Positions 2,352 to 31,037 of a DNA stretch of 31,151 nt are shown here, one piece after another (within the stretch, counting starts at the first letter, position 1; every line of letters starts with the position of its first letter). Under the pieces are notes generated by a model. That model searched no databases and was not told the origin of the DNA. It saw only the letters and a program-made list of their open reading frames with translations. The translations under genes and the position numbers were made by a program. Source of the stretch: a virus; IMG/VR virus record IMGVR_UViG_3300045988_085915, positions 1-31,151 of that record. One strand, written 5' to 3'.

Positions 2352-2921
2352 TTAAGCGTATTTTCAAATGTATCCTTTAGATGTTTGCTTTAATCCACTA
2401 CATACTCTACTAATGGCTCCTCTATCAGTTCCTACTGCATTAGCCGCTTCAGTACAGCTTTCATATTCCTTAATAAAATTTCCCTCTAAATCATATTGTA
2501 AAACCTTTTTACATCTTTTCTTATTATGAATTTCATTACTAATCTTCCAAGGCAAACTATATAAATGTTTCTTACCTTTATTTGATTCTGATAGTTTCTT
2601 TCTTCATTCTGGAGAAAATTTTATTCCATAGTTGCCACCTTCACCTCCTGGCTTCAAGTTTAAACACATTGGATCTACTTCCCATTTATCTCCTATTAAT
2701 TCATACTCCTTTTTAGATAATTCATCTGAATCATTACAGAATGCAATTATTTCTTTTTTATATGCATTAGGAAATCTTTTATAGTAGTTCTTAATAATTT
2801 TACCAGAACCTTTATATGGATCTTTATATGGGTCTTTTCCTTTATAAATACGCTTACCAATGTAATATTTTCCTCTCAATGAGCCAGCAGTTAAATAAAT
2901 TTTATAACAATAGTAAAACAT
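2352..2921 (-). CDS. GIY-YIG homing endonuclease with NUMOD3-like and C-terminal IENR1/NUMOD1-like HTH (189 aa)
   Basis: N-terminus YCYKIY...GKYYIGKR (GIY..YIG). Two in-frame TGA (2604-2606, 2364-2366) join track ORFs 2604..2921 and 2364..2555. The second gives the typical GYIWKY C-terminal motif. TAA stop. Confidence 0.85.
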
Positions 2922-2923: not shown

Positions 2924-3376
2924 TTATATAATAGTAAATTTCTGTCGTCTTTGCATTCCGTCTTTATTCTTTAATCCCAAGTGTATTCAACTTGCTATAC
3001 CATTCTTAGGCTTTTCATATATCAACTGGTCTCAATTTAATTCTTCAATAGCTTCAGCAATCCAACTTTGGAATACTTTCATATTACCATTAATTGGAGA
3101 TATATCTGCTGCATACCCTGTTAAATGAGCAGAAGTTGAAGATCCTCCCACTGCTTTATTAAGCTCCTTATTCCTAAAACCAGAGGAAATCCTGATGCCT
3201 GCATTGCCAAGCTGATTGTCATCACAATACTTTGCCCATCTCTCTCTTATTGGGTCTAAAAGCTTCTCGACCAACTCTATCAGGTGCTCTGTTATACTCT
3301 CATCTGGAGTGTTATTTATATGCTTAATTGAAGCAGTATCAGATCTTGTTAATTCTTCGAGTGTGAAATACTTCAT
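2924..3376 (-). CDS. Endolysin, peptidase M15 family (D-Ala-D-Ala / L-Ala-D-Glu peptidase type), 150 aa
   Basis: FTLEEL..S.TA....INN.P, ISSGFRNKELNKAVGGSSTSAHLTGYAADI (SxHxxGxAxD). After TGA 3032-3034 it continues W-DQLIYE...AS-W(TGA 2987-2989)-IHLGL, matching the family's aromatic-DQLI and aromatic-(I/V)H motifs. TAA stop. Confidence 0.85.
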
Positions 3377-3535: not shown

Positions 3536-4192
3536 TTACATCTTATTTAAAATTATACTTATCTGTATTCCAGCTCTTCTTAGATGTACTCAAGTATCAT
3601 AAGGCATAGGTGTATCACAGAATGATAAACCTAAAATGCCAATATCTTTATCCTCAGTCTTTAAATAAAATACTGCTATTTCATTCACTCCGTTGGATTT
3701 AAATGCATAATATAATCTTGGATCATCTGTTTCTAAACTATCTATATTACCAAACCATCCATCATTCTTAGAAAACTCTATAATTGAAGTATAGTCAGAT
3801 AACAGGAAGTCTTTATAATGGCTACTTACAGATCTTATTCCTGGTTTTACTTCCTCTGCATTCATTACTCCATAAGTAAATGGAAGTCCTCCTAATCCAG
3901 TAGTTCCATTATGATATTCAATAACCCAAGCTCTATCAGCATTGGTACTTTGAAGCAATTCTTTAAGCTTATATTTAATCTTCAAAGTTGCTTCATTTCT
4001 TGCAATAGTTTTAGAATTGTGAGTTTGTTCAATATAGGTTACAACCTTATTATAAACAATAGAGGGATTAAGTGTAATAACCATTACATAGGATATAAAT
4101 ATTAATCCAATCCCTGCTTTAAATATCTTTAGTAATCCATATTTATCAACCCATTCTAATACTTTACCAAACCAATTTAATTTATTTTCCAT
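3536..4192 (-). CDS. Membrane-anchored protein of unknown function (218 aa), directly upstream of holin and endolysin
   Basis: Start MENKLNW... overlaps the upstream stop (TAATG). N-terminal TM segment AGIGLIFISYVMVITL. TGA at 3590-3592 extends the ORF by 17 aa to TAA at 3536. Confidence 0.6.
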
Positions 4193-4617
4193 TACATACT
4201 GTCTTGACATAAACCCAGTGTGTTGTCAACTTGGAAATCAGCTCTAACAAACACTCCGCAGGTAATATCTTTGAACTTTTGATAGAATGGAGTATAAATT
4301 AAAGGATAAGCTATTTCAACTTCTGGATATAGGTTATTAAAACGATTAATTATATTTTGCAGTGCAAGCATACCTGCTGACTGTTCCTCCAATTGGTTGT
4401 TATCAGTCTCATCCCATCTTGATACGAAGTATAGGTTTAAAGAGTAAGTAATAGTATCTTCATCTACACTAAAAGTATTAGGTGTTATATAGAACACATT
4501 ATACTCAATAGTTGGTAAGCTATTTAACTCATAAATATCTTTACTTCCTACAAAATTGATGTTTGGCTCTTCTAATGCACAAGCTTTTAAATTGCTAATT
4601 ATCTCATAGTAGGTCAT
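4192..4617 (-). CDS. Hypothetical virion protein, possibly head-tail joining (141 aa)
   Basis: Uninterrupted ORF packed between the adaptor-like gene and the membrane protein. The function is a positional guess only. Confidence 0.5.
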   Translation of the reverse strand: MTYYEIISNLKACALEEPNINFVGSKDIYELNSLPTIEYNVFYITPNTFSVDEDTITYSLNLYFVSRWDETDNNQLEEQSAGMLALQNIINRFNNLYPEVEIAYPLIYTPFYQKFKDITCGVFVRADFQVDNTLGLCQDSM

Positions 4618-4619: not shown

Positions 4620-5306
4620 TTACTTACTCTTTTTATTATTACTTGAAGGGAAATCATAAGCTCTTTGAAGAGGTCCCTCTCCAGGTTTAATGCTCCATCC
4701 CTTACCTCTTGCTCCACCAAGCCAAATATTGCAAGATGAGCTAGAATAAAGATTGGGAAACATATCCTTTAATGGCTTATATGTATAAAGCTCAGGGAAT
4801 TCATTATAATATGTAATTATAAAGTCCTGTAAACGAGTCTTAAAGAAATCCGCCTTATCTCTATAATACTTCTTAATTTGATTTACTTGACTTGCTTCAG
4901 CAGCAATATCTTTCTCATCATCAGTTCTCATAACTCCAAAATTACCAAGCTTATAAGATATAGGAATTACTATCTCGCTAAGTACTTGATAAAGTAAATA
5001 AGGCTGAACATAATAGTCTAATAGCTCTTTATATCTGTAGTTATCAGAATCATCAATAGAATCACTTGGAAGTGGCTCAGGAGGCTCTATTGGATGAACT
5101 GGGGTATGAGGATCAATCCAATTAATACATTTCTTTTGTAATGCTTCCAATAGCTTAGTACCAATAGTTGACTGAAGTTCTACATCTTGTGCCAACTTAA
5201 TTGCTGATTGAAGATACTTGCCAGAAACATTATTGTCTAAATTAGATTCAGATTTGATATAATCTTCACTAATTAGAAGTACATTTCTAAAATCCATTTG
5301 TTCCAT
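4620..5306 (-). CDS. Putative head-tail adaptor / connector-like protein (228 aa from ATG 5306)
   Basis: ORF immediately after the portal stop (5308). The N-terminal pattern LISEDYIKSESNLDNNVSGKYLQSAIKLAQDVELQSTIG resembles gp6-like connector N-termini. Assignment is weak. Confidence 0.5.
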   Translation of the reverse strand: MEQMDFRNVLLISEDYIKSESNLDNNVSGKYLQSAIKLAQDVELQSTIGTKLLEALQKKCINWIDPHTPVHPIEPPEPLPSDSIDDSDNYRYKELLDYYVQPYLLYQVLSEIVIPISYKLGNFGVMRTDDEKDIAAEASQVNQIKKYYRDKADFFKTRLQDFIITYYNEFPELYTYKPLKDMFPNLYSSSSCNIWLGGARGKGWSIKPGEGPLQRAYDFPSSNNKKSK

Positions 5307-5307
5307 A

Positions 5308-6390
5308 TTATTCAACTATTTTAGAATCAGCTGTATCTAAGCTAAATGGGGTAATTGTGATAGAATTCTTCATACCAAAGATTTTGTCAAATGTATCACA
5401 AATATCTTTTTGCATAGGTTTAATCATCGTTCTATTATATAGTTTAAATGATGAATTAAACTCTTGCTCATTAAATCCAGTAGAATCAGAGTTTATTCCA
5501 AATAAGTTAGGATTAGCTCTAAATGCGCAGAATATCTGTTCTCTTGTCCTATCAGATAAAGCACTATATTTCTCATCAAAATCATCAGAGTCTAAACGCT
5601 CAATAGTAGTCTTATTTGTTTCATCATCATTATATGAAATAAGAACTCTGCCAGCATTTTGAAATCCTGAGAATTTCTCATTAATATTCATCTCAATCTC
5701 TTCTTTAACTTCATCTGTAGGCTGTCCATTATTAAAGTTAATGATAAGATTGCCCATAAATCCATTATGAAGAGAATTTAGATGGAACTCATTAATATTC
5801 TTCTCAGTTTCGCAAGATAAGATAGCTGCACCATAAACAGGGACTGGATATACTTTTCTTGTTATATAGCCCTTATTATAAACAACGCTTGTAGGATTAT
5901 CGTCTGAATAATTAAATTTTGGATATTTGATAGCTTTAATAGACCAAGCAGACCAATCATCAGCATAATAGAATACTTCATTCTTTTCATCAGAACGAAT
6001 CTTCATAAAGTCAAGATGGTATATTTCTGAAACTCTACCTAACATATCTCTAATTATTTGTAAAGCATATCCTCCAAAAATCATCTTATCTTTAGATACT
6101 TTACGCATAATATCCATAATAGTTTCACCTTTCTTATTTACAGTTACTTCAAATCCTGGTGCATTACATATAACATCATTACCAACAATAAAGTCAGCAG
6201 TCCCATTAATGATAGATTGAAGAGTAGCTACATTTAAATATAAATCCCATAAATATACAGGATAGCGATTATCTTCACCCCAAGAAATATAGTCCTTACC
6301 TCTAACTTTACCTTCTACTGGCAATACGATGTTTGATACAATTACTGGATCAATTGCACTTAATTGTACTTTTGTTTTATTTTCGCTCAT
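5308..6390 (-). CDS. Portal protein (360 aa from MSENKTK)
   Basis: Size and motifs (YPVYLWDLY.NVATLQSIINGTADFIVGN, acidic C-terminal half) resemble small PBSX-type portals. No TGA; 4 TGG. Confidence 0.65.
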   Translation of the reverse strand: MSENKTKVQLSAIDPVIVSNIVLPVEGKVRGKDYISWGEDNRYPVYLWDLYLNVATLQSIINGTADFIVGNDVICNAPGFEVTVNKKGETIMDIMRKVSKDKMIFGGYALQIIRDMLGRVSEIYHLDFMKIRSDEKNEVFYYADDWSAWSIKAIKYPKFNYSDDNPTSVVYNKGYITRKVYPVPVYGAAILSCETEKNINEFHLNSLHNGFMGNLIINFNNGQPTDEVKEEIEMNINEKFSGFQNAGRVLISYNDDETNKTTIERLDSDDFDEKYSALSDRTREQIFCAFRANPNLFGINSDSTGFNEQEFNSSFKLYNRTMIKPMQKDICDTFDKIFGMKNSITITPFSLDTADSKIVE

Positions 6391-6769
6391 AAGCCGTATA
6401 TTTGTTTTGTTTATCGTATTGGTATTTATTATTCTGATAATCTCCAATTCTTATTAATCCTGTTCCCAATATAGGTATAGGTTTACCAGCAACTAATATC
6501 TGTGTTCCTGTAGTAAGAGTATTTTCATAAGTTACCAGAATAACTGGATTGCCATATAACTCTGATCTAAATGGATTGTTTACATCAACTATAACTTGAA
6601 ATTTATTTGGATTAGTAAATAAAATATATTGATATTCACCGTCTCTCATTCCTTCTTGAAGTGTAATATCAAACTTATAGTAGATATTCTCAGAATAATT
6701 CTGATTTTCAAGATTAAATGTATAAACTTCTTTAGTAGTTGTATTTTGCATTAATAAAGTATAATTCAT
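6377..6769 (-). CDS. Hypothetical protein (130 aa)
   Basis: Uninterrupted ORF, first gene after the terminator at 6847-6870; overlaps the portal start by 14 nt. Confidence 0.5.
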   Translation of the reverse strand: MNYTLLMQNTTTKEVYTFNLENQNYSENIYYKFDITLQEGMRDGEYQYILFTNPNKFQVIVDVNNPFRSELYGNPVILVTYENTLTTGTQILVAGKPIPILGTGLIRIGDYQNNKYQYDKQNKYTAYERK

Positions 6770-6846
6770 ATTTTACAGCAATTTACATTAGTTTTACATA
6801 TCTTTTTCTTAAAATATAAACTAATTTACTAATGTATTAAAATAAT

Positions 6847-6870
6847 TAAAGGAGACCTAAGCCTCCTTTA
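6847..6870 (-). terminator. Intrinsic terminator after the fiber/RBP array
   Basis: The - strand RNA UAAAGGAGG-CUUAGG-UCUCCUUUA forms a 9-bp stem (one G-U), followed by AUUAUUUUAAU. It lies 53 nt downstream of the stop at 6923. Confidence 0.65.
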
Positions 6871-6922
6871 ATGTCAAGTTTTTTACTCACTCAAAGTACT
6901 AAGAAAAAATAAAAACTGACAA

Positions 6923-7894
6923 TTAGTTTGAACTTGCTAAAGTTCAGTTTTTAGATGTGGCTAATGATTTCTGTTCCTCAGTAAGTGCATTATAAACGTT
7001 AGTATAAAAAGTTAAAGTTTTGGTATCCTTTCCAGTTAAATCACTAACATTTGTAATAATATCAGTTACTGATTGACTATTTAGTGCTCTAAAATTTGCT
7101 AAATTCATACTTTTATCAGCTCCTTCAACACCCCCAAAATAAGTAACAGTAGTATTAGCAAATGCACATATTGAAGTTTTATTTAGATCTTCTGTTAATG
7201 TGCAATTATTTAATTTAATTTTTCCTACTGTTGTAACACCCTCATTATATGAACTAAAGTAATAATATAAAGATAGTTGTCCATTAATAACTTCAATTTC
7301 AGGAACATTACTGCTAACAGAATAAAAGAAAAATTGTAAAGATGATACACCAGTATCAACTTCATTTATCACTTTTAAAGTAGTTGGTAAATTAGAAGCA
7401 TTAAAGAATGTTCTTGTTGCATAATTTCAACTAGAGGATAAGGTATTAATTAATTCTAAATTATTTAGTATGCCTTGAAATCCAGAAAATGTGTACGAAT
7501 TCCCAACACTAGTTCTTATATTATCAATATATATATTATATGTGTTTTGGAAGGCATATGATGCGTCATATACTTTAGACAGATCAATATGACTTGATAT
7601 ATCTATTGTAGATATGAAATTAGTCCCATCAAATCAATGATTTATATTATCTGGAAGAGAATATTCTATATTATTATATTGCTCTTGTGTCATACTAGAA
7701 TATGCAAATGTTAATCCATAATCATTTAAATTAACCTTTCCTCCACCACCTCCAGAAATCTGTCCTATCTTATCTGCATAGCTTCTAAAGGTATCGGAAT
7801 CTGATATAGCAACACCTTTAGCTACAATAGCATCTTTAATGGCACTCTTAGTACCTTCAAGATACGTTAATTTATCAGAAATTGTATTTGCCAT
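6923..7894 (-). CDS. Receptor-binding / tail-fiber protein with BspA-like (DUF285-type) leucine-rich repeats, paralog 3 (323 aa)
   Basis: Three in-frame TGA (7634-7636, 7427-7429, 6944-6946) join the track ORFs. N-terminus MANTISDKLTYLEGTKSAIKDAIVAKGV is a common fiber N-terminal motif. C-terminal LTEEQKSLATSKN-TGA aligns with KNW (TGG) in the two paralogs. Confidence 0.75.
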
Positions 7895-7895
7895 A

Positions 7896-8549
7896 TTAGA
7901 TTACTTCACCATTAATTGTATCAAGAGTAGTTGAAATATTACCAATCTGAGCTTGAATTGCTGAGATTTCTCCATCTAACTCTGTCATCTTTGTATTATA
8001 TGCATCTGTAGTTACATAGTTTGATAACTCACTTTTATCTGCTTTAAGTGCAACTTCATCTTTAGTAGCTAATCCAGATACATCAGGAATCTTATTCTCT
8101 ACAGCTGTAAGCTCTTCTTTAGTAGCAAAATCACTAGTATCAGGAATTTCTGCTTTAGTTGCATAATTACTTAAATCTACAGATAGTTGCAAACCTTCTC
8201 CATTTCTATGTAAAGATAGAGGTTGATTAGCTTGGAATACTTCCATCTTAGAAGTTTCTAACTCCTCAACTTCTCCTTTAAGATTAGTAATCTCAGTATT
8301 AATTGGAACAAGTTTAGCATCAATAGATTGATCTACTAAAGGAGGAACTTGATCTTCAATACTTTCTGTTACTTTAGTATTAATTAACTCTTCTGCTTTC
8401 TCCTCAGAAATGTAATTACCTTTAGGTTGGAATCTTTCATCTGCTTCAATCTTAGTATAAGAACCAACAGGAAGTTGTCCAGACTCGATACCACATTTCT
8501 TACTTACATAGAAAGTTTGTGTATTTTTAGTATTCTTAAGTATAATCAT
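7896..8549 (-). CDS. Coiled-coil tail fiber protein, short (217 aa)
   Basis: Heptad-rich repeats (SNYATKAEIPDTSDFATKEELTAVENKIPDVSGLATKDEV...) as in the 810-aa fiber. TAA stop. Confidence 0.65.
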   Translation of the reverse strand: MIILKNTKNTQTFYVSKKCGIESGQLPVGSYTKIEADERFQPKGNYISEEKAEELINTKVTESIEDQVPPLVDQSIDAKLVPINTEITNLKGEVEELETSKMEVFQANQPLSLHRNGEGLQLSVDLSNYATKAEIPDTSDFATKEELTAVENKIPDVSGLATKDEVALKADKSELSNYVTTDAYNTKMTELDGEISAIQAQIGNISTTLDTINGEVI

Positions 8550-8551
8550 AA

Positions 8552-8788
8552 TTATCTAACTTTTATTGATTCCTCATACTCTTTAGAAGCTTTAATAGCT
8601 AATTCTTTATATTCAGCATCCTTATCTAAAGAGACTTCTGATAGATGCTCTAAATCGCAACTTAAAGGACAGATACATTCAGTAAATGAATTATATGATT
8701 TAATATCCATTCCTTCTTTATAGTTAGTAAGTACATAACCTTCTTCTGGACTAACTACTTTATATTTTTCTTTAATTTCAATTTTCAT
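8552..8788 (-). CDS. Small conserved cassette protein, paralog of 12348..12569 (78 aa from MKIEIKEKY)
   Basis: Shares EGY..T.YKEG.DIK.Y.....CPL..D with the 73-aa paralog and occupies the same position between an LRR gene and a fiber gene. Confidence 0.6.
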   Translation of the reverse strand: MKIEIKEKYKVVSPEEGYVLTNYKEGMDIKSYNSFTECICPLSCDLEHLSEVSLDKDAEYKELAIKASKEYEESIKVR

Positions 8789-8790
8789 AA

Positions 8791-9912
8791 TTATGCAACT
8801 CGATTTATGCTCCAATTCTTTGAAGCGATTAATGATTTCTGTTCATCTGTAAGTTTATCATATGCAGTAGATTTAAAGGATATAGCAGAACCACTAAATA
8901 TACACTCACCAATAGATTCTGCTATAGTTTGTAATGAATCCGTAGATAAATTTGGAGATTGAGCAAAATATAGAAGACTAGCAGTTTTAAAACCTTCTCC
9001 CAATCCATTTAAAGCTCCTACAGTTACTAATTCTGGACAATTTGCAGCAAAACTAGTACAATCTGTAACAAGATGGCAATCTATTTCTGGTGTAGCTGTT
9101 AATCTACTACAAGTACTAAACATATAGCTTATATCTGTAATTCCAGTAAAGATAAAATTACTTGGAATAGTTGTTAGATATAATGCTCTATGAAACATAT
9201 GATTACAATCTCCTTTAAATGGAATATTAATCGTTATATTATCTATATTAGTAGCTCCATCAGCAGTTTCTGCAAATGCCCATTTTGGATCTACTAATAC
9301 AAGATTTTGAAAATTATTCATTACAGAGAAATCATTATTATCTATTTTTACTCCTATAAATAAATAATTTGCACTCACTTCTTTAGTAGTTGTAGGTATT
9401 TTAACATTAGATAAAGTGGCACTATGTATTGTTTGATTCCAAAATTGAGATTCACTAGCCCATCTTCCATATGCTTCATTAAGATTAGTAATCTCCTGGT
9501 TATTTAGATCAAAATGAGATGTTTTAAAAAACCCTCCTTTTCTACTTAAATCTCCACTATTTAACTTTACATCTGCATATGTTTGAGCAGAACCTATAAT
9601 ACTACAAAGAGGTACACCATCTATATTAAGGGCTAATTCACTTAAATCAGCAGTAAAACTAATTACTGTAGAAGTAAGGCCAGATCCTCTACCCATTCAA
9701 TCCCTTTGTATATCATTTATAGTTCCATCATAACTGCTAAATACATAACTACAAGGATCAACTATTGTAGTACCTTGAGGAACTGGATTAGCAACTGTAA
9801 CTATTTGTGGATTACAAGGATTGATAGGCCAGACTTTGGTACTGCCAACATAAATAGCAGTACCTTGTCTGTCACCTACATAAAATGTCTTTAAATCATC
9901 TCTAATATTCAT
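8791..9912 (-). CDS. Receptor-binding protein with BspA-like LRR, paralog 2 (373 aa)
   Basis: TGA at 9697-9699 joins track ORFs 9697..9912 and 8791..9696 in frame. C-terminus LTDEQKSLIASKNWSINRVA. Confidence 0.7.
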
Positions 9913-9913
9913 A

Positions 9914-12346
9914 TTATTCTACAATTAAATATTGTGTATTAGGATCTTTAGTAGATAATCTATCATACTCTGCTTGAGTTAGAACAGTAATAGTATTTAT
10001 TTGAGGTTGAGTTCCAGTTCCAGCTTCAATATAGTTTCCAGCAGGCTGAATACCTAAATCTGATAAACTCTTATTGCCAGATAACTCAACAGAATTAATC
10101 TGAGGTTTATTTGTTAACTGAGTATAGTCAGTAGTCCCTCCACCTCCAGATATTTCAAGATTACCTTCTCCTAAAATACTTTCACCATTAATAGTCTTTA
10201 TATTAGTACCAGAAACTAGTTGCTCTTGATAACTATGATAACTAGTATCTGCTGATACTCCAGTTGGAGTAATAGTAGTTTGAACTACAGTATGATTAGC
10301 TGTAGTACTTTCAAAATGGAAAGTAGCTTGAATATTTTCTCCTGAAACAAAACATACTTCTGGAGCTGCTATATCACCATAACCTAGAATATTTACATAA
10401 TAAAGCTCAAATGGTCTTTTATTAGCTATAGCATTCTTAACAGCAGCGAAATCTCCAGAAAGATGAGTAATGGAATTTATAAATAGAAATGGAATATTAG
10501 AACCACTTTTAATTTCTATATTACCTTCTCCAAGTAAAGACTGACTATTGATTGTTTTGATATTAGTTCCACTTACAAGCAAATCTTGCTTAGTAGCCAT
10601 CTCTTTATCAAGAGAATCAATCTTATCTCCATCTTCTTCTTGTTTTGTTTTAATAATTGATATATCTGAAGTATTAGTTGCTACTTGAGTAGATAAAGAT
10701 TCTACTACAGAAGAATCTGCTTTACCTGCAAGTTCTATTTTTGTTGCATAATCTCCTACAGGCTGTTTAGTAGCAAGCTGCTCATCAACATAAGTCTTAT
10801 CTGCTTTACCTGCTAAATCTCCAGAAACCTCTGTTTCAGTTACAAAGTTAGAATCATTAGTAAGCTCACTAACTTTAGTTGGAATATCACTCTTTAAAGC
10901 ATAATCTCCTTTATCTTGTTTTGCATCAATCTTACTTTGTAAAGAAGATCTTAGAGTCTCAATTTCCTCATTAACTGAATCGTTAGTTGCATAATCACCA
11001 ACTGGTTGGTATCCAGATAAATCTACAGATAACTGAGTCTTATCTCCATTAAAAGCTAATGGAGCTTGAGGAGCAAATACTCCTTGTTTTTCCTCAAGTT
11101 TGGCATCTACTTCTTCTTTAGTATATCCTTTATTAGTAAGATCAACCTCAGTAACTTTAACAGTCATATTACCATTATTTACTAAGATTGCATTAATAAC
11201 TACTAATACACCATTATCTTGGAAATAATAGCCATATAAATCAATAGTTTCTGGATGCTCAATAGTTGCAACAGGAATAACTATAATATCACCTTTATAT
11301 GTAATCTGGCAGAATAAATAGAAGTCCAGATTAGTTCTAATAAAGTCATAGATATGTTTCTGTCTTACAGGATCATTCTCATCTAAATTAAGTAAGAAAT
11401 GATTCTCAAAAGCAGAGATTACATTATCTATAATAGATATATTCTTTCCTGCTGTAAGCGTTTCCTGTTTTGAAGCTATCTCTTTATTAATAGCTGTATT
11501 TAAAGCATCAATTTCAGCTTTGGTATATTTATCTGCTAATTGTGCATATAGAGGACCATTAACAATACCAGCTTGGTTAGTCTCTGTATTATATATTGGA
11601 AGTTCAACTGCTTCTCCAGTTTGATTACCAAATACAGGAGCTAAAGTAACTTTAGATGGGACTGATTGAATATTAATGGCAGGTACGATTGAAGCTGCTC
11701 CAGATAATTCAGTTCCATTTAAAGATGGTTTGTTACGAATAGTATTATAATCTGCAGAAATAGTATTCTCTTCAATTACTATACCATCACCTTGGTTTAA
11801 TTTATTCTGTTTAGAATTTAATGCACTTTCAGTAGCTTCTTTTGTAAGATAATTATCTTCAACTCATTTTTCAGTAGCATATCCATCTAAGCTACTAATA
11901 AACCCACTATCATTAGTTAATTGTGAAGTTTTTGTTGGTATCTCAGATTTATCGGCTTTATTGGCAACTGCATCTGAAATTTCAGTTGTAACCTCTTCTT
12001 TAGTTGGATAATCAGCTAATCGTTCAGTTATCTGATTATCAATATTTTCAGCACTTGGAATAGTACTCTTTATTTGCTCTAACTCAGAATTAATAGTAAC
12101 AATATCTTCAGATGACGCTAATCCCAACTCTTCCGAAGTCATATTACCATTTAACTCAATACTATTGATCTCAGGTTTATCCTGAAGATCAAAATAGCTA
12201 TTAGTAGCTAACTGAGAACCATCCATAACCTTAACTTCATCATCCTTGTCAATAACAATAACTTTAGTCACATTTGACTTATCTATTGTTTCGACTTCAA
12301 GGATATTAAGATAAGGAAGAATTGTCTTTTCAGTTTCGTTTGCCAT
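9914..12346 (-). CDS. Long tail fiber protein (810 aa)
   Basis: TGA at 11864-11866. I translated 11168-11863 codon by codon and found no stop (and no Met), so track ORFs 11864..12346 and 9914..11167 are one gene. Repeated fiber motifs include (S/Q)LTNDS(G/N)F, LVSGTNIKTIN..S(L/I)LGEGN and NKP.IN..EL.GN. Confidence 0.8.
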
Positions 12347-12347
12347 A

Positions 12348-12569
12348 TTATTTATTTTTATAAGATTCCTCTTGTTCTTTTAAATATCTTTCATTTGTTT
12401 CTGCATCAATAACCCTATAAATAGATATATCAAAGGTTAAAGGGCAATATAAAATAGTTGATGCACTATACTCTTTAATATCATCACCTTCTTTATATGA
12501 GGTAATAAAATATCCTTCATCAGAGTATAACTTTATAAATATGCTAGTTTCAATATGTAAATGTTCCAT
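12348..12569 (-). CDS. Small conserved cassette protein, paralog of 8552..8788 (73 aa)
   Basis: Its ATG overlaps the stop of the upstream LRR gene (TAATG). Shares a motif with the 78-aa paralog. Confidence 0.6.
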   Translation of the reverse strand: MEHLHIETSIFIKLYSDEGYFITSYKEGDDIKEYSASTILYCPLTFDISIYRVIDAETNERYLKEQEESYKNK

Positions 12570-13522
12570 TATGCTAATATCCAGTTTTTATTAGTAGCTA
12601 TTGCTTTCTGTTCATCTGATAATTTTGCCAGATTGGTAGCTCCTAATGTTAAAGTTTTGCTATTCTCCCCTGTTAAATCAACTAATGCATTAATAACAGA
12701 CATTAAAGAATCAGTAGTAAGATTGGTACTTGCTGATAGATATAATCCTGCTCTAAGCTCACCGTTTACTGTAAGATTAGTAATTCCACCACATTTTGAA
12801 AATATAGGATTTATTGAACTTTCTTGAGATGTGTATGATGGAATGTTTAATGTTACATCTGTTAATCTAATGCAATCTCCAAACATATTAGTAGTAGTTA
12901 CTAATTTAGGAGCGTCTAAATTAAGTGTTTTCAGGCTATTATATCCAGGTAAGGTACCTCTGCTAAACATATTAGACCCATCTGTTAATTCAGGCATTGG
13001 AATAGTGAATGATGTTAAATCATCACATTCTGTAAACATATATCTGCCATCTTCTAATTTAGGCAATTGCATAGTGAACTCCTTAATTTTTGATCTTTGA
13101 CATTTATATCTTCCATCAACTAAATTTTCTCAACCTACAACATTTGCAGGAACAGACGTTCCAGTAAACCTATATAAATTAACTACAGCTTGCGTAATAT
13201 CATAAGTTGAAGAAGTTGGCACATTAATAGTAGCTTCAACTTTCTCCATAACATCATAATCTGGATCAGGTAAAATATCTATTAATCCATTAGATGTAAT
13301 TGTAATCTCTTTAGTAGCTTGTACTGTAGGAACAACAACATCAACAGATACATTTACTTTCGACATACCATCATAACCCTCATCTGGAGTTACAACGAAC
13401 TCAGCATTCTGAGTATATTCTACAGATTTCTCCTGTAATTTACATTCTTGAGCAGCTAAAGCTTCAATATCTCTTGAAGTTGTATTCTTTGCTACTTCTG
13501 GTGTTGTATATTTAATAGCCAT
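12569..13522 (-). CDS. Receptor-binding protein with BspA-like LRR, paralog 1 (317 aa)
   Basis: TGA at 13130-13132 joins ORFs 13130..13522 and 12569..13072; I translated the linker and found no stop. N-terminus has TPDEGYDGMSKVNV; C-terminus LSDEQKAIATNKNWILA. Confidence 0.75.
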
Positions 13523-13568
13523 TTTCTATAAAATATAAATAGTTAATTATCTGTCCATAAACAAAATA

Positions 13569-13596
13569 AGGGGCAAGTAAATTAATACTCGCCCCT
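13569..13596 (-). terminator. Hairpin terminator/attenuator after the tail tube gene
   Basis: AGGGGCAAGTA / TACTCGCCCCT stem with one mismatch and a 6-nt loop, followed on the - strand by UUAUUUUGUUUAU. Confidence 0.6.
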
Positions 13597-13606
13597 CTTT
13601 CTGTTA

Positions 13607-14131
13607 TTAAGCACCTACAACGCTTTGAATAGCTTCAGCACTCAACTCATAAGGATATGATTCAGAGTCAGTAGCTAAAGTCAGCGTATAAGCGTTCTGA
13701 TCACCTTTTGCAGTACCAGTAACACCCGTACCAGCGGAAGCGCTTACATAGTCATCTTTTCCTAAGAACCAGTATTTGCCATTAGAATCTTCTACAACAA
13801 CTACAAGTTGTCCAATAGAAAGAGCAGCAATCTCGATTCTTTTCTTAGTCTCCATCTTTGTAAATACAAGAGCAAGCTCATTACTTACATAGTTGGTTCC
13901 TGCAGTTTCGTCAACGTTCAATGTTGAGGTTAGAGAACCAGTACCTTTGCGGAATTGGTAATTATACCATTCAGCATCTGCTTCAAGAGTAATAGCTGAG
14001 ATTTGATTAGTCTCATCATCTACAGTTACACTCTTAACATTATCGTACTGAGTAATCCATACCTGTTTGATACCACCAAGCGAAGCTTCGCAATCCAGGG
14101 TAATACCAGCGATAGTTATTAAACAAGCCAT
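13607..14131 (-). CDS. Major tail (tube) protein (174 aa)
   Basis: Sits directly after the capsid gene. The pattern GGIKQVWI...W.NYQF.KGTGS...LALVF...IGQLVVVVEDSNGKYWFLG...TG...D.NAYTLTL resembles siphophage tube proteins. Higher GC than the surrounding sequence; only TGG Trp. Confidence 0.6.
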   Translation of the reverse strand: MACLITIAGITLDCEASLGGIKQVWITQYDNVKSVTVDDETNQISAITLEADAEWYNYQFRKGTGSLTSTLNVDETAGTNYVSNELALVFTKMETKKRIEIAALSIGQLVVVVEDSNGKYWFLGKDDYVSASAGTGVTGTAKGDQNAYTLTLATDSESYPYELSAEAIQSVVGA

Positions 14132-14169: not shown

Positions 14170-15075
14170 TTAGGCTTTGGCACCAAGAACTACCTCATCA
14201 GGGAATGCAACCTGTACGCCAGCGTTAAATTCAATAGCTAATCTAAATTCGCGGAAATCTTGTGAATACCACAATTCAAACTTCTCTTCATCGTTCATCA
14301 TATCGCAACCATAGAAGAAGTTCTTATCTAACTGACCAGCAACAATCTTATCAGTTCCATTAAGACCATTAACAGCGATTACTTTAACCTGCGAACCAGG
14401 AAGCATAATCTCACCATTAAGATTCTCACCACTATAGTGGTAGTAGTTCTTAGCAACTAACTCCTGGATAAATTTACGGAAAGTATCACTGCCAACTAAG
14501 ATAGAAGCACCATCCAGAACCTTCTCAGGAATAGCGTTATAAACAGCCATAATGTCATCATAAGCAGATGCTCCAGTAATTTCTACATCAACAACCCCAT
14601 CAGCAGCACCAAGGATCTTTAACAGACCATCAAAATACTTCAGGTTATTTGTTTCAGAATCAGTATCACCCTGCCAAATAGCAGTCTCAATAGCAGCCTT
14701 AACATTCTCAACTACTGCATTTACGAAATCCTCTTCAAAAGGAAGCGTCTTCTGACCAGCAGCTACTCGTACTTGATACTGAGTCCAGTATTTAAGCATC
14801 TCTTTATCACAATATGCCATATTGATCTTAATATTACCAGTAGCCAGAATTCTCTGAGAAAGAGTCTGAGTTCCAGCTTCATCCCAACCACAAGCTAGGC
14901 CATCGCCAAACTGAATAGCAGTTGATAACAGGTTAAGAGCAGCACTAGTTTTGATGTCAGTTTGAAGATTGAACAACGAAGCACTCTTAGCCTTTAATAC
15001 AGCCTCTTTAATAAGAGGAAGACGTCTCTGCTCTACATAAGCAGTAAGACTAGTCATTACAGGACTATTTGCCAT
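14170..15075 (-). CDS. Major capsid protein (301 aa)
   Basis: Lies in the canonical protease-scaffold-capsid order. The size and sequence style fit small HK97-fold capsid proteins. GC-richer codon usage; 4 TGG, no TGA. Confidence 0.75.
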   Translation of the reverse strand: MANSPVMTSLTAYVEQRRLPLIKEAVLKAKSASLFNLQTDIKTSAALNLLSTAIQFGDGLACGWDEAGTQTLSQRILATGNIKINMAYCDKEMLKYWTQYQVRVAAGQKTLPFEEDFVNAVVENVKAAIETAIWQGDTDSETNNLKYFDGLLKILGAADGVVDVEITGASAYDDIMAVYNAIPEKVLDGASILVGSDTFRKFIQELVAKNYYHYSGENLNGEIMLPGSQVKVIAVNGLNGTDKIVAGQLDKNFFYGCDMMNDEEKFELWYSQDFREFRLAIEFNAGVQVAFPDEVVLGAKA

Positions 15076-15713: not shown

Positions 15714-16307
15714 TTAATGTTTAACTCTTTTTATCTTCTTAATCATATTAAGGATCTCTTTTATTTCGTCATATTCATCAGACTTTCTCTCTAAAGTAAA
15801 TAAACCTTCAATTGAGAACCCTTTAAACTTACCAGCTTTAATTGCATCTCAAATAACTTGATTATCTACTTTATAAGTGGCAAATAAAGAACCATCAGGA
15901 ACATCCTGGAATTCAACTGGAGATATTCCTCTATTAATATCCTTTACATAGATTTCTTGTAGAGTAATTCCATTTAAATCAGAATCTTCTAAATGTTCAA
16001 TATTTACATCTGTAGTTCTCTTATCATACAGCATCTTCTCTGCCATTTTACGAAGAGTTTCCTTATCATACTGTATGTAGTATTCTCCGAGTTTCTCATC
16101 TCGTCTGAAAATTGGAGTATCACTTAACATTAAGCAAGATGTTACTAAATGCTTATCTTCATCCATCGAGAACTTCTGAGAATTACTAAAAGCAACCCAG
16201 TTAACTTGTGTAGCTGGTTTACTTGTTAAAGCAACATATTCTATTCCATCACAATCATCAGTAATCACTGCCTGAAATAATGGAAGATCATTATAAGTAA
16301 TTTCCAT
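15714..16307 (-). CDS. Prohead protease, XkdF-like (197 aa)
   Basis: N-terminus LFQAVITDDCDGIEYVALTSKPA. TGA at 15849-15851 continues into W-DAIKAGKFKGFSIEGLF, the family-typical G.SIEG motif. TAA at 15714. Confidence 0.6.
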
Positions 16308-16359
16308 TTTTATTAATATATAGCACTTTATAAATTTGTAATATTTTTAGAATATCTAA

Positions 16360-16409
16360 TGTAACCTTTTTACTCATATTTTGTAGTTAATAAGAATAAA
16401 AAAGTTACA
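16360..16409 (+). promoter_or_regulatory. 50-bp inverted-repeat-armed element, copy 2, 53 nt upstream of the - strand protease gene but with its core in + orientation
   Basis: TGTAACCTTTTTACTCATATTTTGTAGTTAATAAGAATAAAAAAGTTACA; 50 nt; lies in the intergenic gap between the tape measure stop (16420) and the protease start (16307). Confidence 0.55.
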
Positions 16410-16419
16410 CTAAATATTT

Positions 16420-19188
16420 TTAGAATGAAGCATTAGATTCAGTAACTGCTACCTTAGTTTGAGCTGAAGTAATGTCAGATTCAACAACATAACACTTAAC
16501 AGGTTCATTTAAAAGGTCAGTTTCTTTATCTCCAAGTAAGTTTCGAGTATATTCAACAGGAGCTGTATTTAAAGCAGCTGGTGCTGCCACTGCTGCAGAT
16601 GCTCCACTCACTCCACTTGCACCTGATTCATCTACTTCTCAAATCTTTTTAACATTTGCAATACCTGCAACTACTGCGGCTGCAGCTGCAGCAATACCTA
16701 AAGCAGGACCTACAATAGGAATTCCTGCCATAGCAGAGTATGCGCTATTTGCTGCTGAATAAGTGTCAATTAAAGCTTGTGCAGTAGCAAATCCTTTTCC
16801 AACTTTACTCTCTTCTCCCCAAATACTTGCCATACTTCCTGCAATGCTTGAAGCTACAGATAAAGTTCCCTGTAAAGCTTGCTGTCTTGCTTTTTGAAGA
16901 TTTTGATAAGCCTGAGTATTTGCCTGTTCATTAGCTAATTGAGCATCTGATAAGGCCATATTATTCTCAGTAAGAGTTCTTTGAATTTCCTCTTTTTGTT
17001 CAGCAGTTAATTGTTCATTCATTAATTGCTGATTTAATAAGGCATTCTCTTGCTCTATTCTACCTTGAGTTAATGAGAGTAAGTTGTTATTGTATTCAAT
17101 TTGAGCATTGTATTGATTCTCTAAGTCCTCTCTACTCTGATATGTAAATTTATAACCAGTCCCTTCATAATCTCCAGCCAATCCAAATGCTTTCGATATA
17201 CCTTGAGTATAAGTAGTCTGAAAGGTCTGCTCTCTTGGCTCTCTCAAATTACTTGTAGAAGATAAATCTCTAATCCTTTTTAATTCAGACTGTAGATCAT
17301 TCCAAGCTTTATCTGCATCTTCCTTACGCTTAGCTTCTTCATCAGCTCTAGCTTTATCTCTAATCTTTTTAAGCTCTTCCTGATGCCAAGCTTCTACCTC
17401 TTCAATTCCCCTATTATACTTAATAGCTAATGCTAATAGTCTAATATATTCATCTTCAAGTTCATCTACTGGGTCTTTATCCTCTAATCTCTTTTGAAGC
17501 CATTCATCAAATTCATTAATTACCTTCTTAGCTTCAGTAGTGTTCTTTGTAATAGTTGGAATATTAAAGAATCCACCATACTTTTTATTAGTATCTGCTA
17601 CATCCTCAAATAGCTTTCTAAGCCTTTTCTCAATGTCTTTATTTAAATCATCCAACTGTTTATAAGTATTCTCTTTATTTTGCTTTGTATACTCATAAAT
17701 TGTATTTGAATAATCTTTTCAGAACATTGCTGTAGCTTTAAAAGCCTGCCAAGCAGATGCCTCTCCAAAGCTTGTATCAGAAATTTGATTCTCCAGTTCA
17801 GTACGTTTGTTTAAATACTCCTCATAAAGTTTAATTGCAGCCTGTTCAATAGCTTGTGCTTTAGCTCTTGCTTCTAAGGCTTCTACATAATTGCCTGTAT
17901 TATTTACAAACGCATCTTCTGCAGTCTTTACATTAGTGATATTTAAACCAGTCTCTTTAATCTTATCGGAATATTGCTCTATAAACTTACGCTTAGCATC
18001 TGCAGAATCTCCAACCCTTTCGTAAGCTATTTGTAACTCTCTAAAGATAGCTATAGATTTAGAAGCAATCTGATTAGTAGTATCTGTAATAGACTTTCTA
18101 AATTCAGCAGCCTCCTTTTCAGCTGATTTTATTGAGGATATATACTCTATTATCTTATTAATAGCTACTCCAATAGCTGTAGCTAATGCAATTCATACAG
18201 TTACATTACCAATAGTTTTAAGTGCAGTTTTAACTTTACCTACTCCAGAAGCAGCTTGTTCTGAAGCTTCAGCCATTGCTTTCTGAGCCTCTGCTCCTTT
18301 TCGCAAAGTTGGAATGCCTTTTTCTACATTTTCCTTTAATTCATTAAGATCTACACCTAAACGTTTAGCAGCTTTCTGCATTCTCTCTGCTGGAGTTCCA
18401 GTCTCTTTTGCTGCTTCCTTTAAAAATTCAGCAACTGTAGTAAATGTAGGTTTTACTTCTTCAAAGGACTTTTTTGCAGTTTCTCCTAATTTACCTATAA
18501 TCGGAATCGTATTAGATACACTCTTATTAGTAGCAGATATTTCAGCAGGAGTGCCCATTACTCCTTGAATCATACCTCCTTTAAAATTAATATTGGTGCC
18601 TTCTAAATCCTTGACTACTTTAGAGATATTACCTAATTCAGTTCCAACATTACCAACAGATGTGCCAATGCCATTAAGCTTAGATGCATCAATCTGATTA
18701 AGATTTTTGGCAGCATTATTCAACCCTGTATTAAATGGAGAGATAAAATCAGTTAATTTCTTAAACCAATTACCTAAAGTAGGCAATTCTTCTAATAAAT
18801 CTTTTATACCTCCAATACCTTGTACTAATGCAATAGATGACTGTAACTTAACCATTACTTTAGTTAAATCTTCAGATTCTTTCCCAAATAAAGTAATGGC
18901 AGCTGTTGCAGCTCCATATCCACTGGCCAAACCAGTGGATATTTTAGCTACACTTTCAAACCTTTGAGCAGTAGTTCTTGAAGATCTTGCTATCTGCTCA
19001 TTAATTTTATTGAATTCTGATTGTCTCTTACCAAGTAATGAAAGAGTTTCATTATATTCCTTAGTACCAATCTCTAAATCATTCAGCGAATTAGTTAATG
19101 CATCAATATCTTTCTTTAAAGAGTTTATTGACTTATTACTTGACTTAGTATCAATACTAATAACCTTTTTAATTTCTGTTTGTGCCAT
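16420..19188 (-). CDS. Tape measure protein (922 aa)
   Basis: Three in-frame TGA (18193-18195, 17719-17721, 16639-16641) join four pieces. I translated 17656-18192 and 16612-16638 and found no stops. Long coiled coils plus Gly/Ala-rich hydrophobic segments (GIPIVGPALGIAAAAAAVVAGIA). Confidence 0.7.
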
Positions 19189-22100: not shown

Positions 22101-22544
22101 TACAAAGTATTGTAAATCAGCAAGAGTCCTAATAGTACCATCTTCTTTATATTTAAGACCATAAAAGAAATCTCCTAATCCTCCATATAAAGTAATATTA
22201 TAAGTAATAATAGCTTGTTTTATAGATATACTATTTAATTGCATATATCCAGATTCAACTAAATAGCCATTATTATAAATTCCAAAATCAACTCGTTTTG
22301 AAGGATCAAAATATACTCCAGAGAAATTACCTTCTTTTATATGGAGAAATCTATCTAACTTATAAATCTCTCCAAATATCTTATTATTATTTTTGGTACC
22401 AGGTATAGAAATCGTCTTACTAAACGAGTTCTTGACTATAGTGGGGTTTTGGAAATCCTCAACAGTATATGTCATAGGAAGACTAATTCCCTCACTACAG
22501 TCAACCTCTTTATTTGCAATAAATAATTTAATATTCTTTCTCAT
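19188..22544 (-). CDS. Large tail/baseplate protein (1118 aa) with C-terminal Ig/BACON-like domains
   Basis: All fragments (22014..22544, 21678..21977, 20352..20684, 19629..19892, 19188..19463) share one frame. I translated every gap and found only TGA (11 codons) and no TAA/TAG. Its TAA overlaps the tape measure ATG (TAATG). Confidence 0.8.
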
Positions 22545-22546
22545 AA

Positions 22547-24727: not shown

Positions 24728-24729
24728 TT

Positions 24730-25218
24730 TTAAAAGTCTTTAAATAAATAATAATCTACTTGTCCTTGTAAGTCTTTAGTTATAGCATCATCAAGAAGTT
24801 CCATATAGTTGTTCTCTATATATTCTATAGTATTAGCAAGTGGATATTTTCCTTGAGTTCCTTGAAGATGTATCTTTCTTCCAATTAAATATGCAAGTTG
24901 ATCTACAGTAGGTAACTTGCCATTATAAGGTCTTGGAATTACTGGCTTAGTTTTAATCCAACTCTTTATATCAGATAATGGAGGAAATTTACCAGCAGCT
25001 CTGCCTTCTTCAACATATTCTCAATAATCTAATAAGCTAAAATTAACCTCATATTCTCCATCTTGAGTCTCAACTATATAGTTTAAACTATTACCTAATG
25101 CTCCAGTGTCATCAGATCTGGTTTTAACTAATTCCTGTCTATAAAGAGAAATTATAAGATCTCCTCACTTCCTTAATAGCTCACTTAAATTTGAGAACTT
25201 TAATTCTTGAATATTCAT
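24730..25218 (-). CDS. Virion morphogenesis / tail completion-like protein (162 aa); first gene of the tail operon
   Basis: Absent from the ORF track because of two in-frame TGA (LRK-W-GD, LDY-W-EY). The YWEYVEEGRAAGKFPP..IKSWIKTK pattern is reminiscent of HK97 gp10-like proteins, but this is weak. Confidence 0.55.
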
Positions 25219-25258
25219 TTTTGTTAAAATATATTATTTTATATATTAGTAGCTAATG

Positions 25259-25285
25259 AAAATAGGGAGGTTTACTCCCTATTTT
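25259..25285. terminator. GC-rich hairpin in the leader between element copy 3 and the tail operon start
   Basis: 11-bp perfect stem AAAATAGGGAG / CTCCCTATTTT with a 5-nt loop; 3 nt from the 50-bp element and 41 nt from the ATG at 25218. Confidence 0.55.
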
Positions 25286-25288
25286 ATA

Positions 25289-25338
25289 TGTAACTTTTTT
25301 ATATTATCTTAGTACCAAATATGAGTAAAAAGGTTACA
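25289..25338 (-). promoter_or_regulatory. 50-bp inverted-repeat-armed element, copy 3 (core in - orientation), upstream of the tail operon
   Basis: Its reverse complement, TGTAACCTTTTTACTCATATTTGGTACTAAGATAATATAAAAAAGTTACA, aligns with copies 1 and 2 over its whole 50 nt. Confidence 0.6.
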
Positions 25339-25482
25339 GTTAATGTTTTCTTTTTCATTCTTCAATCTGTCTATTTTCTTCATTAGCTTTATCTATAACA
25401 TAGCATATAAGATTCAGGAACTCTTTAATCTGCATATCATATATCTGATGCCAATTAAATCTGGTAACTTCACTTACCTTAT

Positions 25483-26124: not shown

Positions 26125-26125
26125 A

Positions 26126-31017: not shown

Positions 31018-31037
31018 TTGTTGTATATTTGTACTAT
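31018..31037 (+). promoter_or_regulatory. Promoter-like 20-mer TTGTTGTATATTTGTACTAT (+ strand), pointing toward the helicase module across the circular junction
   Basis: Exact inverted copy of 30385-30404; lies 36 nt after the GIY-YIG stop and upstream of the 33-64 hairpin. Confidence 0.45.

Follow-up and report, generated by a model that had tools for sequence, protein, structure and literature searches.

A seven-gene block of leucine-rich-repeat proteins and fibres in a code-4 tailed phage is probably a modular adhesin kit

How did the block of seven genes between positions 6923 and 13522 of a 31,151-nucleotide stretch of virus DNA (IMG/VR record IMGVR_UViG_3300045988_085915, positions 1 to 31,151; hereafter the window) arise, and what might it do? 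In order of transcription the block encodes a leucine-rich-repeat (LRR) protein, a small protein and a fibre (LRR_A, small_A and fibre_A), a second series of the same kind (LRR_B, small_B and fibre_B) and a third LRR protein (LRR_C). The original prediction took this order for a tandemly triplicated unit. Our comparative analysis points to a different answer. The block is probably a modular, hypervariable plug-and-socket kit of accessory adhesins carried by a tailed phage that uses genetic code 4, and its assembly from a widely shared three-part kit, not local triplication, appears to be the best explanation of the gene order.

The seven open reading frames (ORFs) of the original prediction were recovered exactly with their lengths of 317, 73, 810, 373, 78, 217 and 323 aa; what the prediction had not flagged is that they are intact only with TGA as a sense codon. 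Gene calls under the bacterial code, which split four of the seven genes at TGA (13522-12569, for example, falls into pieces of 130 and 167 aa), were ruled out, and code 4 is needed for gene calling throughout the phage lineage. All six internal stops of the block are TGA (codons in Table 1) and the terminal stop of all seven genes is TAA. Re-calling of the window with TGA as sense gave a minus-strand operon whose genes are tightly packed between 2352 and 30195, and the 34 genes of the whole window contain 47 in-frame TGA codons, 69 TGG codons and no TGA stop. In alignments with related genomes the TGA codons of the window stand opposite TGG 258 times and opposite TGA 249 times, Tyr and Phe codons being the next commonest partners, and one TGA of LRR_C lies opposite the W of the common 'KNW' motif. 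We conclude that this phage reads TGA as tryptophan (code 4), across the entire window, genes that appear to be early included. Code 25 (TGA = Gly) was ruled out, as the partners of TGA are TGG and aromatic codons and not GGN. Neither a tRNA or suppressor tRNA nor any Rfam match was found in the window; code-4 phages are known, and a suppressor tRNA was detectable in only ~35% of those surveyed (bioRxiv 10.1101/2021.08.26.457843).

The assignment of the three larger proteins to the BspA/DUF285-like LRR family, as originally proposed, is upheld by allelic variants and by profile-profile comparison and not by the window copies themselves, which stay below the Pfam cut-offs. Genes at the three LRR positions in relatives found by a scan with the capsid protein were reduced to 23 representatives, and matches were accepted at E <= 0.001. 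LRR_5 (PF13306) was matched by 9 of these 23 allele types (best 1e-15), DUF285 (PF03382) by 5 (best 4e-28) and the NCBIfam PARCEL repeat TIGR02167 by 4. When the own cluster of each window protein was compared with 21 canonical DUF285 proteins by hhalign, the scores were 99.9% for LRR_A (aa 155-317), 98.4% for LRR_B (aa 237-369) and 99.5% for LRR_C (aa 3-320), to each of which the conserved C-terminal cap and the N-terminal modules contribute a part. The family profile also matched solved structures of BspA-like LRR proteins (4fs7, 3e-25; 4gt6, 4e-21). Repeats of the form '..MF..C..L..', about 23-28 residues long, occur four times in LRR_A (YMFTEC, NMFSRG, NMFGDC, PIFSKC), where they are also seen as a DNA repeat family (D6) with spacings of 84 and 69 nt; LRR_B has two or three of them (HMFHRA, YMFSTC), and in LRR_C they are degenerate. 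An AlphaFold2 (AF2) model of the protein P0012, a proxy 93.6% identical to LRR_B, is confident over aa 110-373, with strands every 23-25 residues, a helical C-terminal cap and a disordered N-terminus. From these comparisons we conclude that LRR_A, LRR_B and LRR_C are divergent members of the BspA/DUF285/PARCEL superfamily of LRR proteins, the body of LRR_C being degenerate.

The cap itself, 'TNLAKL(T/S)(D/E)E(Q/E)KAIAT.K(N/G)W.L', is nearly universal: hundreds of homologues in the database, with N-termini of many kinds, end in it. The C-terminal signature that had been noticed in the three window proteins is the version of this cap in the lineage, and the only columns invariant among the 23 allele types are K312 and W314 of LRR_A. 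Some of the database homologues of the LRR proteins are labelled 'surface protein'. DUF285/PARCEL proteins are known above all as horizontally spreading surface proteins of bacteria, and the paper describing PARCEL does not discuss phages (PMC2996958).

Variation within the phage lineage indicates modularity. About 120 loci were compared, the capsid-protein scan of IMG/VR had returned 55 related loci, and 27 lineage genomes were tabulated for gene content and segment clusters. The lineage is abundant, the cluster of LRR_B having 986 members. In most related genomes the capsid protein is at least 89% identical to that of the window. At the three LRR positions the relatives have 70 unique sequences. 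Clustered at 70% identity these give 23 types, of which about 11 belong to position A, 4 to B and 8 to C. In the segment table fibre_A, LRR_B, fibre_B and LRR_C hardly vary at their N-termini but swap their bodies and C-termini. Gene content varies as well. All seven genes are present in some genomes (e.g. L007, L008, L021 and L030), the block starts with fibre_A and lacks both LRR_A and small_A in 10 of the 27, L006 lacks small_B and keeps fibre_B, and L031 lacks small_A. LRR_A, which is thus optional within the lineage, is identical to the database protein P0033. Relatives at a greater distance (capsid protein 44-57% identical) run from g174 through a g130-like gene to the portal gene without any block, so the block must be accessory. 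Between backbones with capsid genes at a synonymous divergence (dS) of 0.66 its modules keep a DNA identity of 97-99%, which argues for recent module exchange. Within allele clusters the ratio of nonsynonymous to synonymous divergence (dN/dS) is 0.07-0.33 for six of the seven genes, as expected under purifying selection; the value of ~1.0 for LRR_C comes from one pair only and is uninformative. The proposal that this is a locus of the host-range type fits these data well, since the N-terminal modules stay constant, the bodies are exchanged and even near-identical phages differ in gene content; receptor binding itself would follow by inference.

In many relatives the fibre_B and LRR_C genes are separated, exactly at their junction, by an insertion of 516 nt (L007:17124-17640, and L004, L009-L012, L020, L025, L028, L029, L035 and L047), for which the equivalent point in the window is the junction 7894/7896. 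The insertion encodes an HNH/NUMOD4 homing endonuclease (Pfam HNH_3, 5.6e-8) and alters the end of fibre_B from '..INGEVI' to '..INGEIPNE'. It is tempting to speculate that homing endonuclease genes at module junctions may promote the exchange of heads. Switching by a diversity-generating retroelement or an invertase was considered and rejected, no reverse transcriptase or recombinase being present among the proteins scanned.

Gene order in other phages suggests how the modules are paired. A fibrous stalk gene with an LRR gene directly behind it, the latter with a matching N-terminal adaptor that resembles the one of LRR_C, recurs in at least 10 unrelated phage lineages of 27-54% GC, of myo- and sipho-type. 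A myovirus of 54% GC (L056) has a stalk ending in '..LDEINGEVI' followed by an LRR protein with 'MGTTTAKLQAIADSKAAIKAAIARKGV'; in a prophage of 38% GC (L058) the stalk ends in '..LEVVLNGE', and in a phage of 31% GC with an SPP1-type portal (L059) it ends in '..LESVLNGN'. Coiled-coil ends precede LRR genes in various further loci of 27-44% GC (L093, L099, L101, L103/110/116 and L106), collagen-like ends do so in L091/92 (30% GC), and in L038, a relative within the lineage, a stalk of collagen and coiled coil ends in '..NNTLTEING' before the LRR gene. In a temperate siphovirus of 34% GC (L061) the order is a fibre ('..GVLYIVKNK'), an LRR protein ('MNFNNVCQIKLGNDSEIELIKLGNSVIVY'), a second fibre ('..LDAINGEVL') and a second LRR protein ('MATADKLQKLLETKAAIRQAIVNKGV'), which is the order of fibre_A, LRR_B, fibre_B and LRR_C in the window. 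Two sets of natural fusions are consistent with such a modular kit. On one contig (L027:16453-17475) residues 1-44 of fibre_B are joined in frame to LRR_C from residue 27 on, at a common 'KG', such that both the coiled-coil stalk and the LRR adaptor are missing; this would fit a fibre N-terminus that acts as the anchor and an LRR that forms the distal head. In L048, which uses the standard code and has a capsid protein 51% identical, the module of immunoglobulin-like (Ig-like) repeats and DUF285 is fused to the C-termini of homologues of two post-portal genes (Table 1), a hint that proteins close to the head-tail junction can display LRR heads.

The third part of the kit is the small protein. 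Neither window copy matches a Pfam or PHROG family, and hence none of the known tail-fibre assembly families. A word-indexed search gave 78 clusters of ~40-125 aa (mostly 70-90) on contigs of up to 48 kb, and an exhaustive search of 1.84 billion representatives with a hidden Markov model (HMM) gave 334 at E <= 1e-3 and 150 at E <= 1e-10, so that the family comprises at least 334 clusters at 50% identity. Almost all of the 150 listed representatives are stand-alone proteins of 58-125 aa. The AF2 model is compact, with five beta-strands and a C-terminal helix (pLDDT 94.8); it has no fold match in the PDB (best E 0.48), and in BFVD it matches only uncharacterised small phage proteins (best TM 0.68, E 5e-3). 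When 3,288 ORFs from 50 foreign loci were searched with an iterated profile, six matched (E <= 8e-15), all six adjoining a gene with the DUF285 cap, as do four of five distant representatives that were sampled (L120, L121, L123 and L124), the fifth (L122) having only 92 nt of non-coding sequence upstream. Outside the lineage the small gene therefore adjoins a DUF285-cap LRR gene in 10 of the 11 occurrences examined. Many other foreign loci have an unassigned ORF of 58-102 aa right behind their last LRR gene, and the initial small-protein HMM found no match in L056-L058. Co-variation across the 27-genome table tells the same story. The adjusted mutual information (AMI) of small_B is 0.75 with the body of LRR_B upstream, and 0.0 and 0.45 with the N-terminus and the body of fibre_B downstream; for small_A it is 0.68 with the body of LRR_A, and 0.23 and 0.32 with fibre_A downstream, the latter value being that of its N-terminus. 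Over both small proteins the AMI spans 0.68-0.76 with the LRR upstream and 0.0-0.32 with the fibre N-terminus downstream. The dedicated small protein of the original prediction is thus supported by co-variation and adjacency, as a companion of an LRR gene.

Taken together, N-terminal modules, gene content, co-variation and adjacency in foreign phages divide the block into the natural units {LRR_A, small_A}, {fibre_A, LRR_B, small_B} and {fibre_B, LRR_C}. We propose that fibre_A and fibre_B, which are rich in repeats and coiled coil (stalks elsewhere are also collagen-like), would be stalks held in the virion by their conserved N-termini. Each head would be a separately encoded DUF285/BspA/PARCEL-type LRR protein with the conserved cap, docking through a short, position-specific N-terminal adaptor on the stalk encoded upstream. 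The amphipathic segment and glycine linker of LRR_C may pair with the coiled-coil end '..INGEVI' of fibre_B, and the beta-type adaptor of LRR_B, 'fYVG..aIYVGstkVW', with the tip '..YLIVE' of fibre_A, whereas LRR_A seems to bring a short Ig-like stalk of its own. The heads presumably bind structures on the host surface, and the protein of ~75 aa is most likely an assembly factor that would fold or mount them, with a retained partner as the alternative. Since the adaptors and the fibre N-termini are conserved and the LRR bodies are not, a head and its small gene could be exchanged by recombination with assembly left intact, and such exchange would yield many adhesion specificities on one chassis across the phage population. 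A wider claim is possible and is put forward tentatively. Stalk, DUF285-LRR head with cap and small partner may together be a universal plug-and-socket adhesin system that is widespread among tailed phages and has so far gone undescribed; a few docking interfaces would let heads cross between unrelated phages (myo- and sipho-type, 27-54% GC, standard code and code 4). The small protein could then be a new class of head-assembly factor, and phages a possible vehicle for the horizontal spread of PARCEL/DUF285 among bacteria and eukaryotic microbes.

Several observations weigh against this proposal. In the Pfam scan of the window copies LRR_A reached only 20.1 bits against LRR_5, for which the cut-off is 27.7 (E 6e-4), and LRR_B and LRR_C gave no match. 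A Foldseek search of the PDB with the LRR_B-proxy model returned nearly all LRR proteins as top matches, none of them significant (best E 0.14, TM ~0.2). The case for docking between adaptor and stalk consists of conserved gene adjacency and motif pairing; the beta-type junction of fibre_A and LRR_B was found in two lineages only, as judged by eye, and PF24243, a domain of the fibre_A tip, is not detected at the fibre end of L061. Linkage alone could account for the co-variation of the small protein with the LRR, there is often one small gene for two to four LRR genes (L101, L121 and L123), LRR_C has none, and in L121 the small gene precedes the LRR gene, with the stalk gene on its other side. 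Incorporation into the virion, physical docking, receptor binding and the role of the small protein are things we infer from genes and sequence. Finally, the block sits among head genes, so that the fibres could be appendages of the tail, the neck or the head.

This last point leads to the alternative that survives best, namely that the fibres and LRR proteins are neck, collar or head appendages of the whisker type used for reversible adhesion, and that primary receptor binding falls to the 726-aa and 1118-aa proteins encoded beside the tape-measure-like gene. The position of the block between the capsid and g174 genes and the g130 and portal genes is what this explanation would predict. It is also in line with the pair of coiled-coil and LRR genes between terminase and portal in L059 and L060, with the L048 fusions to homologues of two post-portal genes (DUF6712 and g141) and with the distant relatives that do without the block. 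However, fibre_A ends in a Pfam 'Phage tail tip domain', the gene series of L061 closes the tail module just before the lysis genes and that of L056 stands among myovirus tail genes. Searches for PDB sequence matches, annotated PHROGs and literature gave no identity for g231 (DUF6712), g141, g174 or g130, and gene position is a weak guide in mosaic phages. We therefore regard the appendage explanation as rather unlikely, yet as the most serious competitor of an accessory adhesin kit.

For the small protein, an unlikely alternative is that it remains in the virion as a stoichiometric structural partner of the head, for instance as a tip or plug on the cap or on the concave face of the LRR, where it would add specificity or mask the binding site until release. 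Its compact, confidently predicted domain, the conservation of both the small family and the LRR cap across many lineages, the purifying selection on it and its co-variation with the LRR body are all compatible with such a role. A stoichiometric partner is harder to reconcile with the frequent sharing of one small gene by several LRR genes and its absence for LRR_C, with the dispensability of the gene in L006 and L031, and with the lack of any structural relative of known function. Our preference remains a role in head assembly.

Much less survives of the original model, in which a unit of LRR adhesin, small chaperone or adaptor and coiled-coil fibre was duplicated in tandem, giving two copies and a third LRR gene, with the small protein serving the fibre downstream. 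The order of LRR, small protein and fibre is indeed present twice, its LRR-small part is supported, and the similarities between paralogues are significant. In pairwise BLASTP the LRR proteins, said to have a common C-terminal signature, gave E 3e-11 (LRR_A and LRR_B, 26% over 170 aa), 9e-10 (LRR_A and LRR_C, 44% over the last 50 aa) and 2e-7 (LRR_B and LRR_C, 24% over 209 aa). The two small proteins are likewise similar, as had been claimed (E 3e-11, 53% over 32 aa), and their family aligns from end to end; the claimed similarity of the fibres (E 2e-5, 30% over 121 aa) holds only as a likeness of repeat type. Against triplication, there are no DNA-level repeats between the units, and a recent tandem duplication was ruled out for want of long direct repeats. 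The three N-terminal modules of the LRR proteins differ: LRR_A has 'MAIKYTTPEVAKN..' followed by Ig-like 'PD.GYDG' repeats, which number from ~2 to 10 copies among relatives, LRR_B has 'MNIRDDLKTFYVGDRQGTAIYVGSTKVWP', and LRR_C has 'MANTISDKLTYLEGTKSAIKDAIVAKGV..YADKIGQISGGGGG'. The LRR genes are as near to those of unrelated phages as to each other, and the C-terminal LRR half of LRR_A is nearer to such foreign genes (37-43% identical, E down to 3e-28) than to LRR_B or LRR_C. The proposed unit is contradicted by gene content, in that fibre_A is kept without LRR_A and small_A in 10 of the 27 genomes, fibre_B without small_B in L006, and small_A is missing in L031. It is further contradicted by the low AMI of each small protein with the N-terminus of the fibre downstream and by fibre and LRR pairs that are conserved elsewhere without an LRR gene upstream. 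These comparative data largely refute the tandem unit, which we consider very improbable.

It is barely credible that the LRR proteins are phage-carried 'moron' proteins altering the host surface or host processes in the manner of bacterial BspA or Mycoplasma DUF285 lipoproteins, for although DUF285/PARCEL is best known from horizontally spread bacterial surface proteins (PMC2996958) and some homologues are labelled accordingly, no hydrophobic signal-peptide, lipobox-like or transmembrane segment is evident by inspection at the N-termini of LRR_A, LRR_B or LRR_C, the genes are translationally packed within a late structural operon and always adjoin fibre genes, no integrase was found in the phage, and LRR modules are fused to homologues of structural genes in L048 and L027.

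Table 1. Features of the block, of its surroundings in the window and of the fusions in L048.
Feature	Coordinates	Strand	Length (aa)	Details
Upstream hairpin	13568..13597	(-)		terminator-like, 12-bp stem and T-run; between g174 gene and LRR_A; upper block boundary
LRR_A	12569..13522	(-)	317	TGA=Trp codon 131 (nt 13132-13130); N-terminal anchor aa 1-28; two Ig-like 'PD.GYDG' stalk repeats ~aa 29-105; DUF285/BspA-type LRR aa 155-265; conserved C-terminal cap aa 266-317 ('..TNLAKLSDEQKAIATNKNWILA')
small_A	12348..12569	(-)	73	start overlaps LRR_A stop by 1 nt; predicted fold of five beta-strands and a C-terminal helix
fibre_A	9914..12346	(-)	810	TGA=Trp codon 161 (nt 11866-11864); N-terminus conserved; fibre repeats 'TNDSGF', 'NKPxINSxEL', 'GTNIKTING'; C-terminal 'Phage tail tip domain' PF24243 (5.4e-9), aa 785-809, nt 9994-9920; end '..NTQYLIVE'
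LRR_B	8791..9912	(-)	373	TGA=Trp codon 72 (nt 9699-9697); adaptor 'MNIRDDLKTFYVGDRQGTAIYVGSTKVWP' aa 1-30, lineage-invariant; body variable; recognisable LRR repeats and cap aa 237-369
small_B	8552..8788	(-)	78	paralogue of small_A
fibre_B	7896..8549	(-)	217	N-terminal ~50 aa conserved; C-terminal coiled coil aa ~139-217, end '..IGNISTTLDTINGEVI'; library matches of coiled-coil type only
LRR_C	6923..7894	(-)	323	TGA=Trp codons 87, 156, 317; N-terminus aa 1-52 lineage-invariant, amphipathic 'ISDKLTYLEGTKSAIKDAIVAKGV..YADKIGQI' and GGGGG linker; degenerate LRR body; cap '..LTEEQKSLATSKNW'; no small gene after it
Downstream hairpin	6845..6872	(-)		terminator-like; after LRR_C; lower block boundary
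Terminase large subunit	26126-27409			
Major capsid protein	14170-15075			
g174	13607-14131	(-)	174	highly conserved; directly after capsid gene; strong terminator-like hairpin behind it
Portal	5308-6447			
g231, DUF6712 protein	4620-5315			after portal
g141	4192-4617			after DUF6712 gene
Peptidase_M15_3 endolysin	2924-3376			
Homing-endonuclease-type genes, free-standing	28996-29490, 30494-30982, 2352-2921	(-), (+), (-)		HNH_3/NUMOD4/I-HmuI-like, GIY-YIG, NUMOD1-domain protein
L048, first fusion	L048:7199-8935			DUF6712 (3e-16) and DUF285 (2e-15)
L048, second fusion	L048:8952-11384			g141-like N-terminus, DUF285 and LRR_5

The terminator that had been predicted after the third LRR gene was found as the downstream hairpin, and the second hairpin precedes the block. 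The window ends in a 119-bp exact direct repeat (1-119 and 31033-31151) and is therefore a complete genome of ~31.0 kb. Transcription runs from the terminase through the large proteins of 726 and 1118 aa, the 922-aa tape-measure-like protein, the prohead protease and the scaffold to the major capsid protein, and from there through g174, the seven-gene block, g130 (130 aa), the portal and g231 to the endolysin. This order is unusual at 15714-27409, where the genes for the 726-aa, 1118-aa and tape-measure-like proteins precede those for protease, scaffold and capsid, with the portal gene far downstream of the capsid gene. The 1118-aa protein contains 11 in-frame TGA codons and has a weak BACON_2 match. 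Called from its first possible start codon, TTG at 6447, the portal ORF has 71 nt (6377-6447) in common with the 130-aa gene; many homologues align only from portal residues 14-20 on, so the start probably lies further downstream. For g174, whose only matches are to PHROG families of unknown function and for which the PDB gave no convincing sequence match, a role as major tail or decoration protein may be considered.

The terminase is less than 30% identical to that of every GenBank phage, and no close cultured relatives were found. As the phage encodes a Peptidase_M15_3 endolysin, its host should have a cell wall. A scan of genomes returned mostly contigs of ~30 kb that had been binned into metagenome-assembled genomes (MAGs) of mixed taxa. 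Integration in Bacteroidota genomes, namely in a Leeuwenhoekiella isolate (325-kb contig) and an Agriterribacter MAG (L076 and L080), was seen only for phages whose capsid module is distantly related (34-40% identity).

A literature search on DUF285, BspA or LRR proteins as phage receptor-binding proteins yielded nothing relevant within the library searched, and no published description was found of a separately encoded DUF285/BspA LRR fibre head, of the two junction types, of the cap or of the small-protein family. If the proposed kit is real, host-range loci of many uncultured gut and rumen phages could be read by one rule, as stalk end, matching LRR adaptor and small partner. It would also give a role to phage DUF285/BspA proteins, often annotated only as 'surface protein' or 'hypothetical', and would add a new small-protein family as a candidate assembly factor. 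Engineering of host range could then profit from conserved sockets that take exchangeable LRR heads, and LRR scaffolds are already in use as designed binders.

Several known systems resemble parts of the proposed kit. The bacterial BspA/DUF285/PARCEL proteins have homologous repeats, highly variable hydrophilic faces and a patchy horizontal distribution (PMC2996958). The phage versions differ from them in having no secretion or lipoprotein signals and in carrying phage-specific N-terminal adaptors and the conserved cap 'TNLAKLTDEEKAIATNKGWTL'. Short trimeric coiled-coil accessory fibres that are dispensable occur among head and neck genes as the T4 fibritin (wac) whiskers and the phi29 head fibres. 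The block would resemble them in the kind of its fibres and in the place of its genes. No homology to them was found, none having been tested for, and where fibritin ends in a foldon the fibres of the block would end in a docked LRR head.

Tail-fibre genes followed by an assembly-protein gene are known as T4 gp37/gp38, Mu S/U, P2 H/G and lambda Stf/Tfa. There, as in the block, a small gene adjoins the receptor-binding part and travels with it in module exchange. In the block the partner would be an LRR domain where those systems have a trimeric fibre tip, some heads do without a small gene, and unlike Tfa- or gp38-like chaperones the small protein belongs to no Pfam or PHROG family and has no structural match in the PDB.

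It is classic phage biology that receptor-binding loci are modular, with conserved adaptors, and that small genes travel with receptor-binding modules. Phages with several receptor-binding proteins, such as CBA120 (TSP1-4), G7C (gp63.1/gp66), K1-5/SP6 (dual tailspikes) and Klebsiella phage phiK64-1, combine conserved N-terminal adaptors with swapped distal domains. Like the block as we read it, they carry several adhesins per virion, short conserved N-terminal docking modules and recombining distal parts that set the host range. Their trimeric beta-helix tailspikes have no sequence homology to the DUF285/BspA LRR solenoids of the block, whose heads, accompanied by a small protein, appear to dock on the C-terminal end of a separate coiled-coil or collagen-like stalk. 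A split of this kind between arm and receptor-binding part is found in the lactococcal TP901-1/Tuc2009 baseplate, BppU-BppL(-BppA), in which separately encoded receptor-binding proteins sit at the C-terminal end of an arm protein. The folds of that baseplate are different and not homologous, whereas the junction motifs of the block are common to many unrelated phages.

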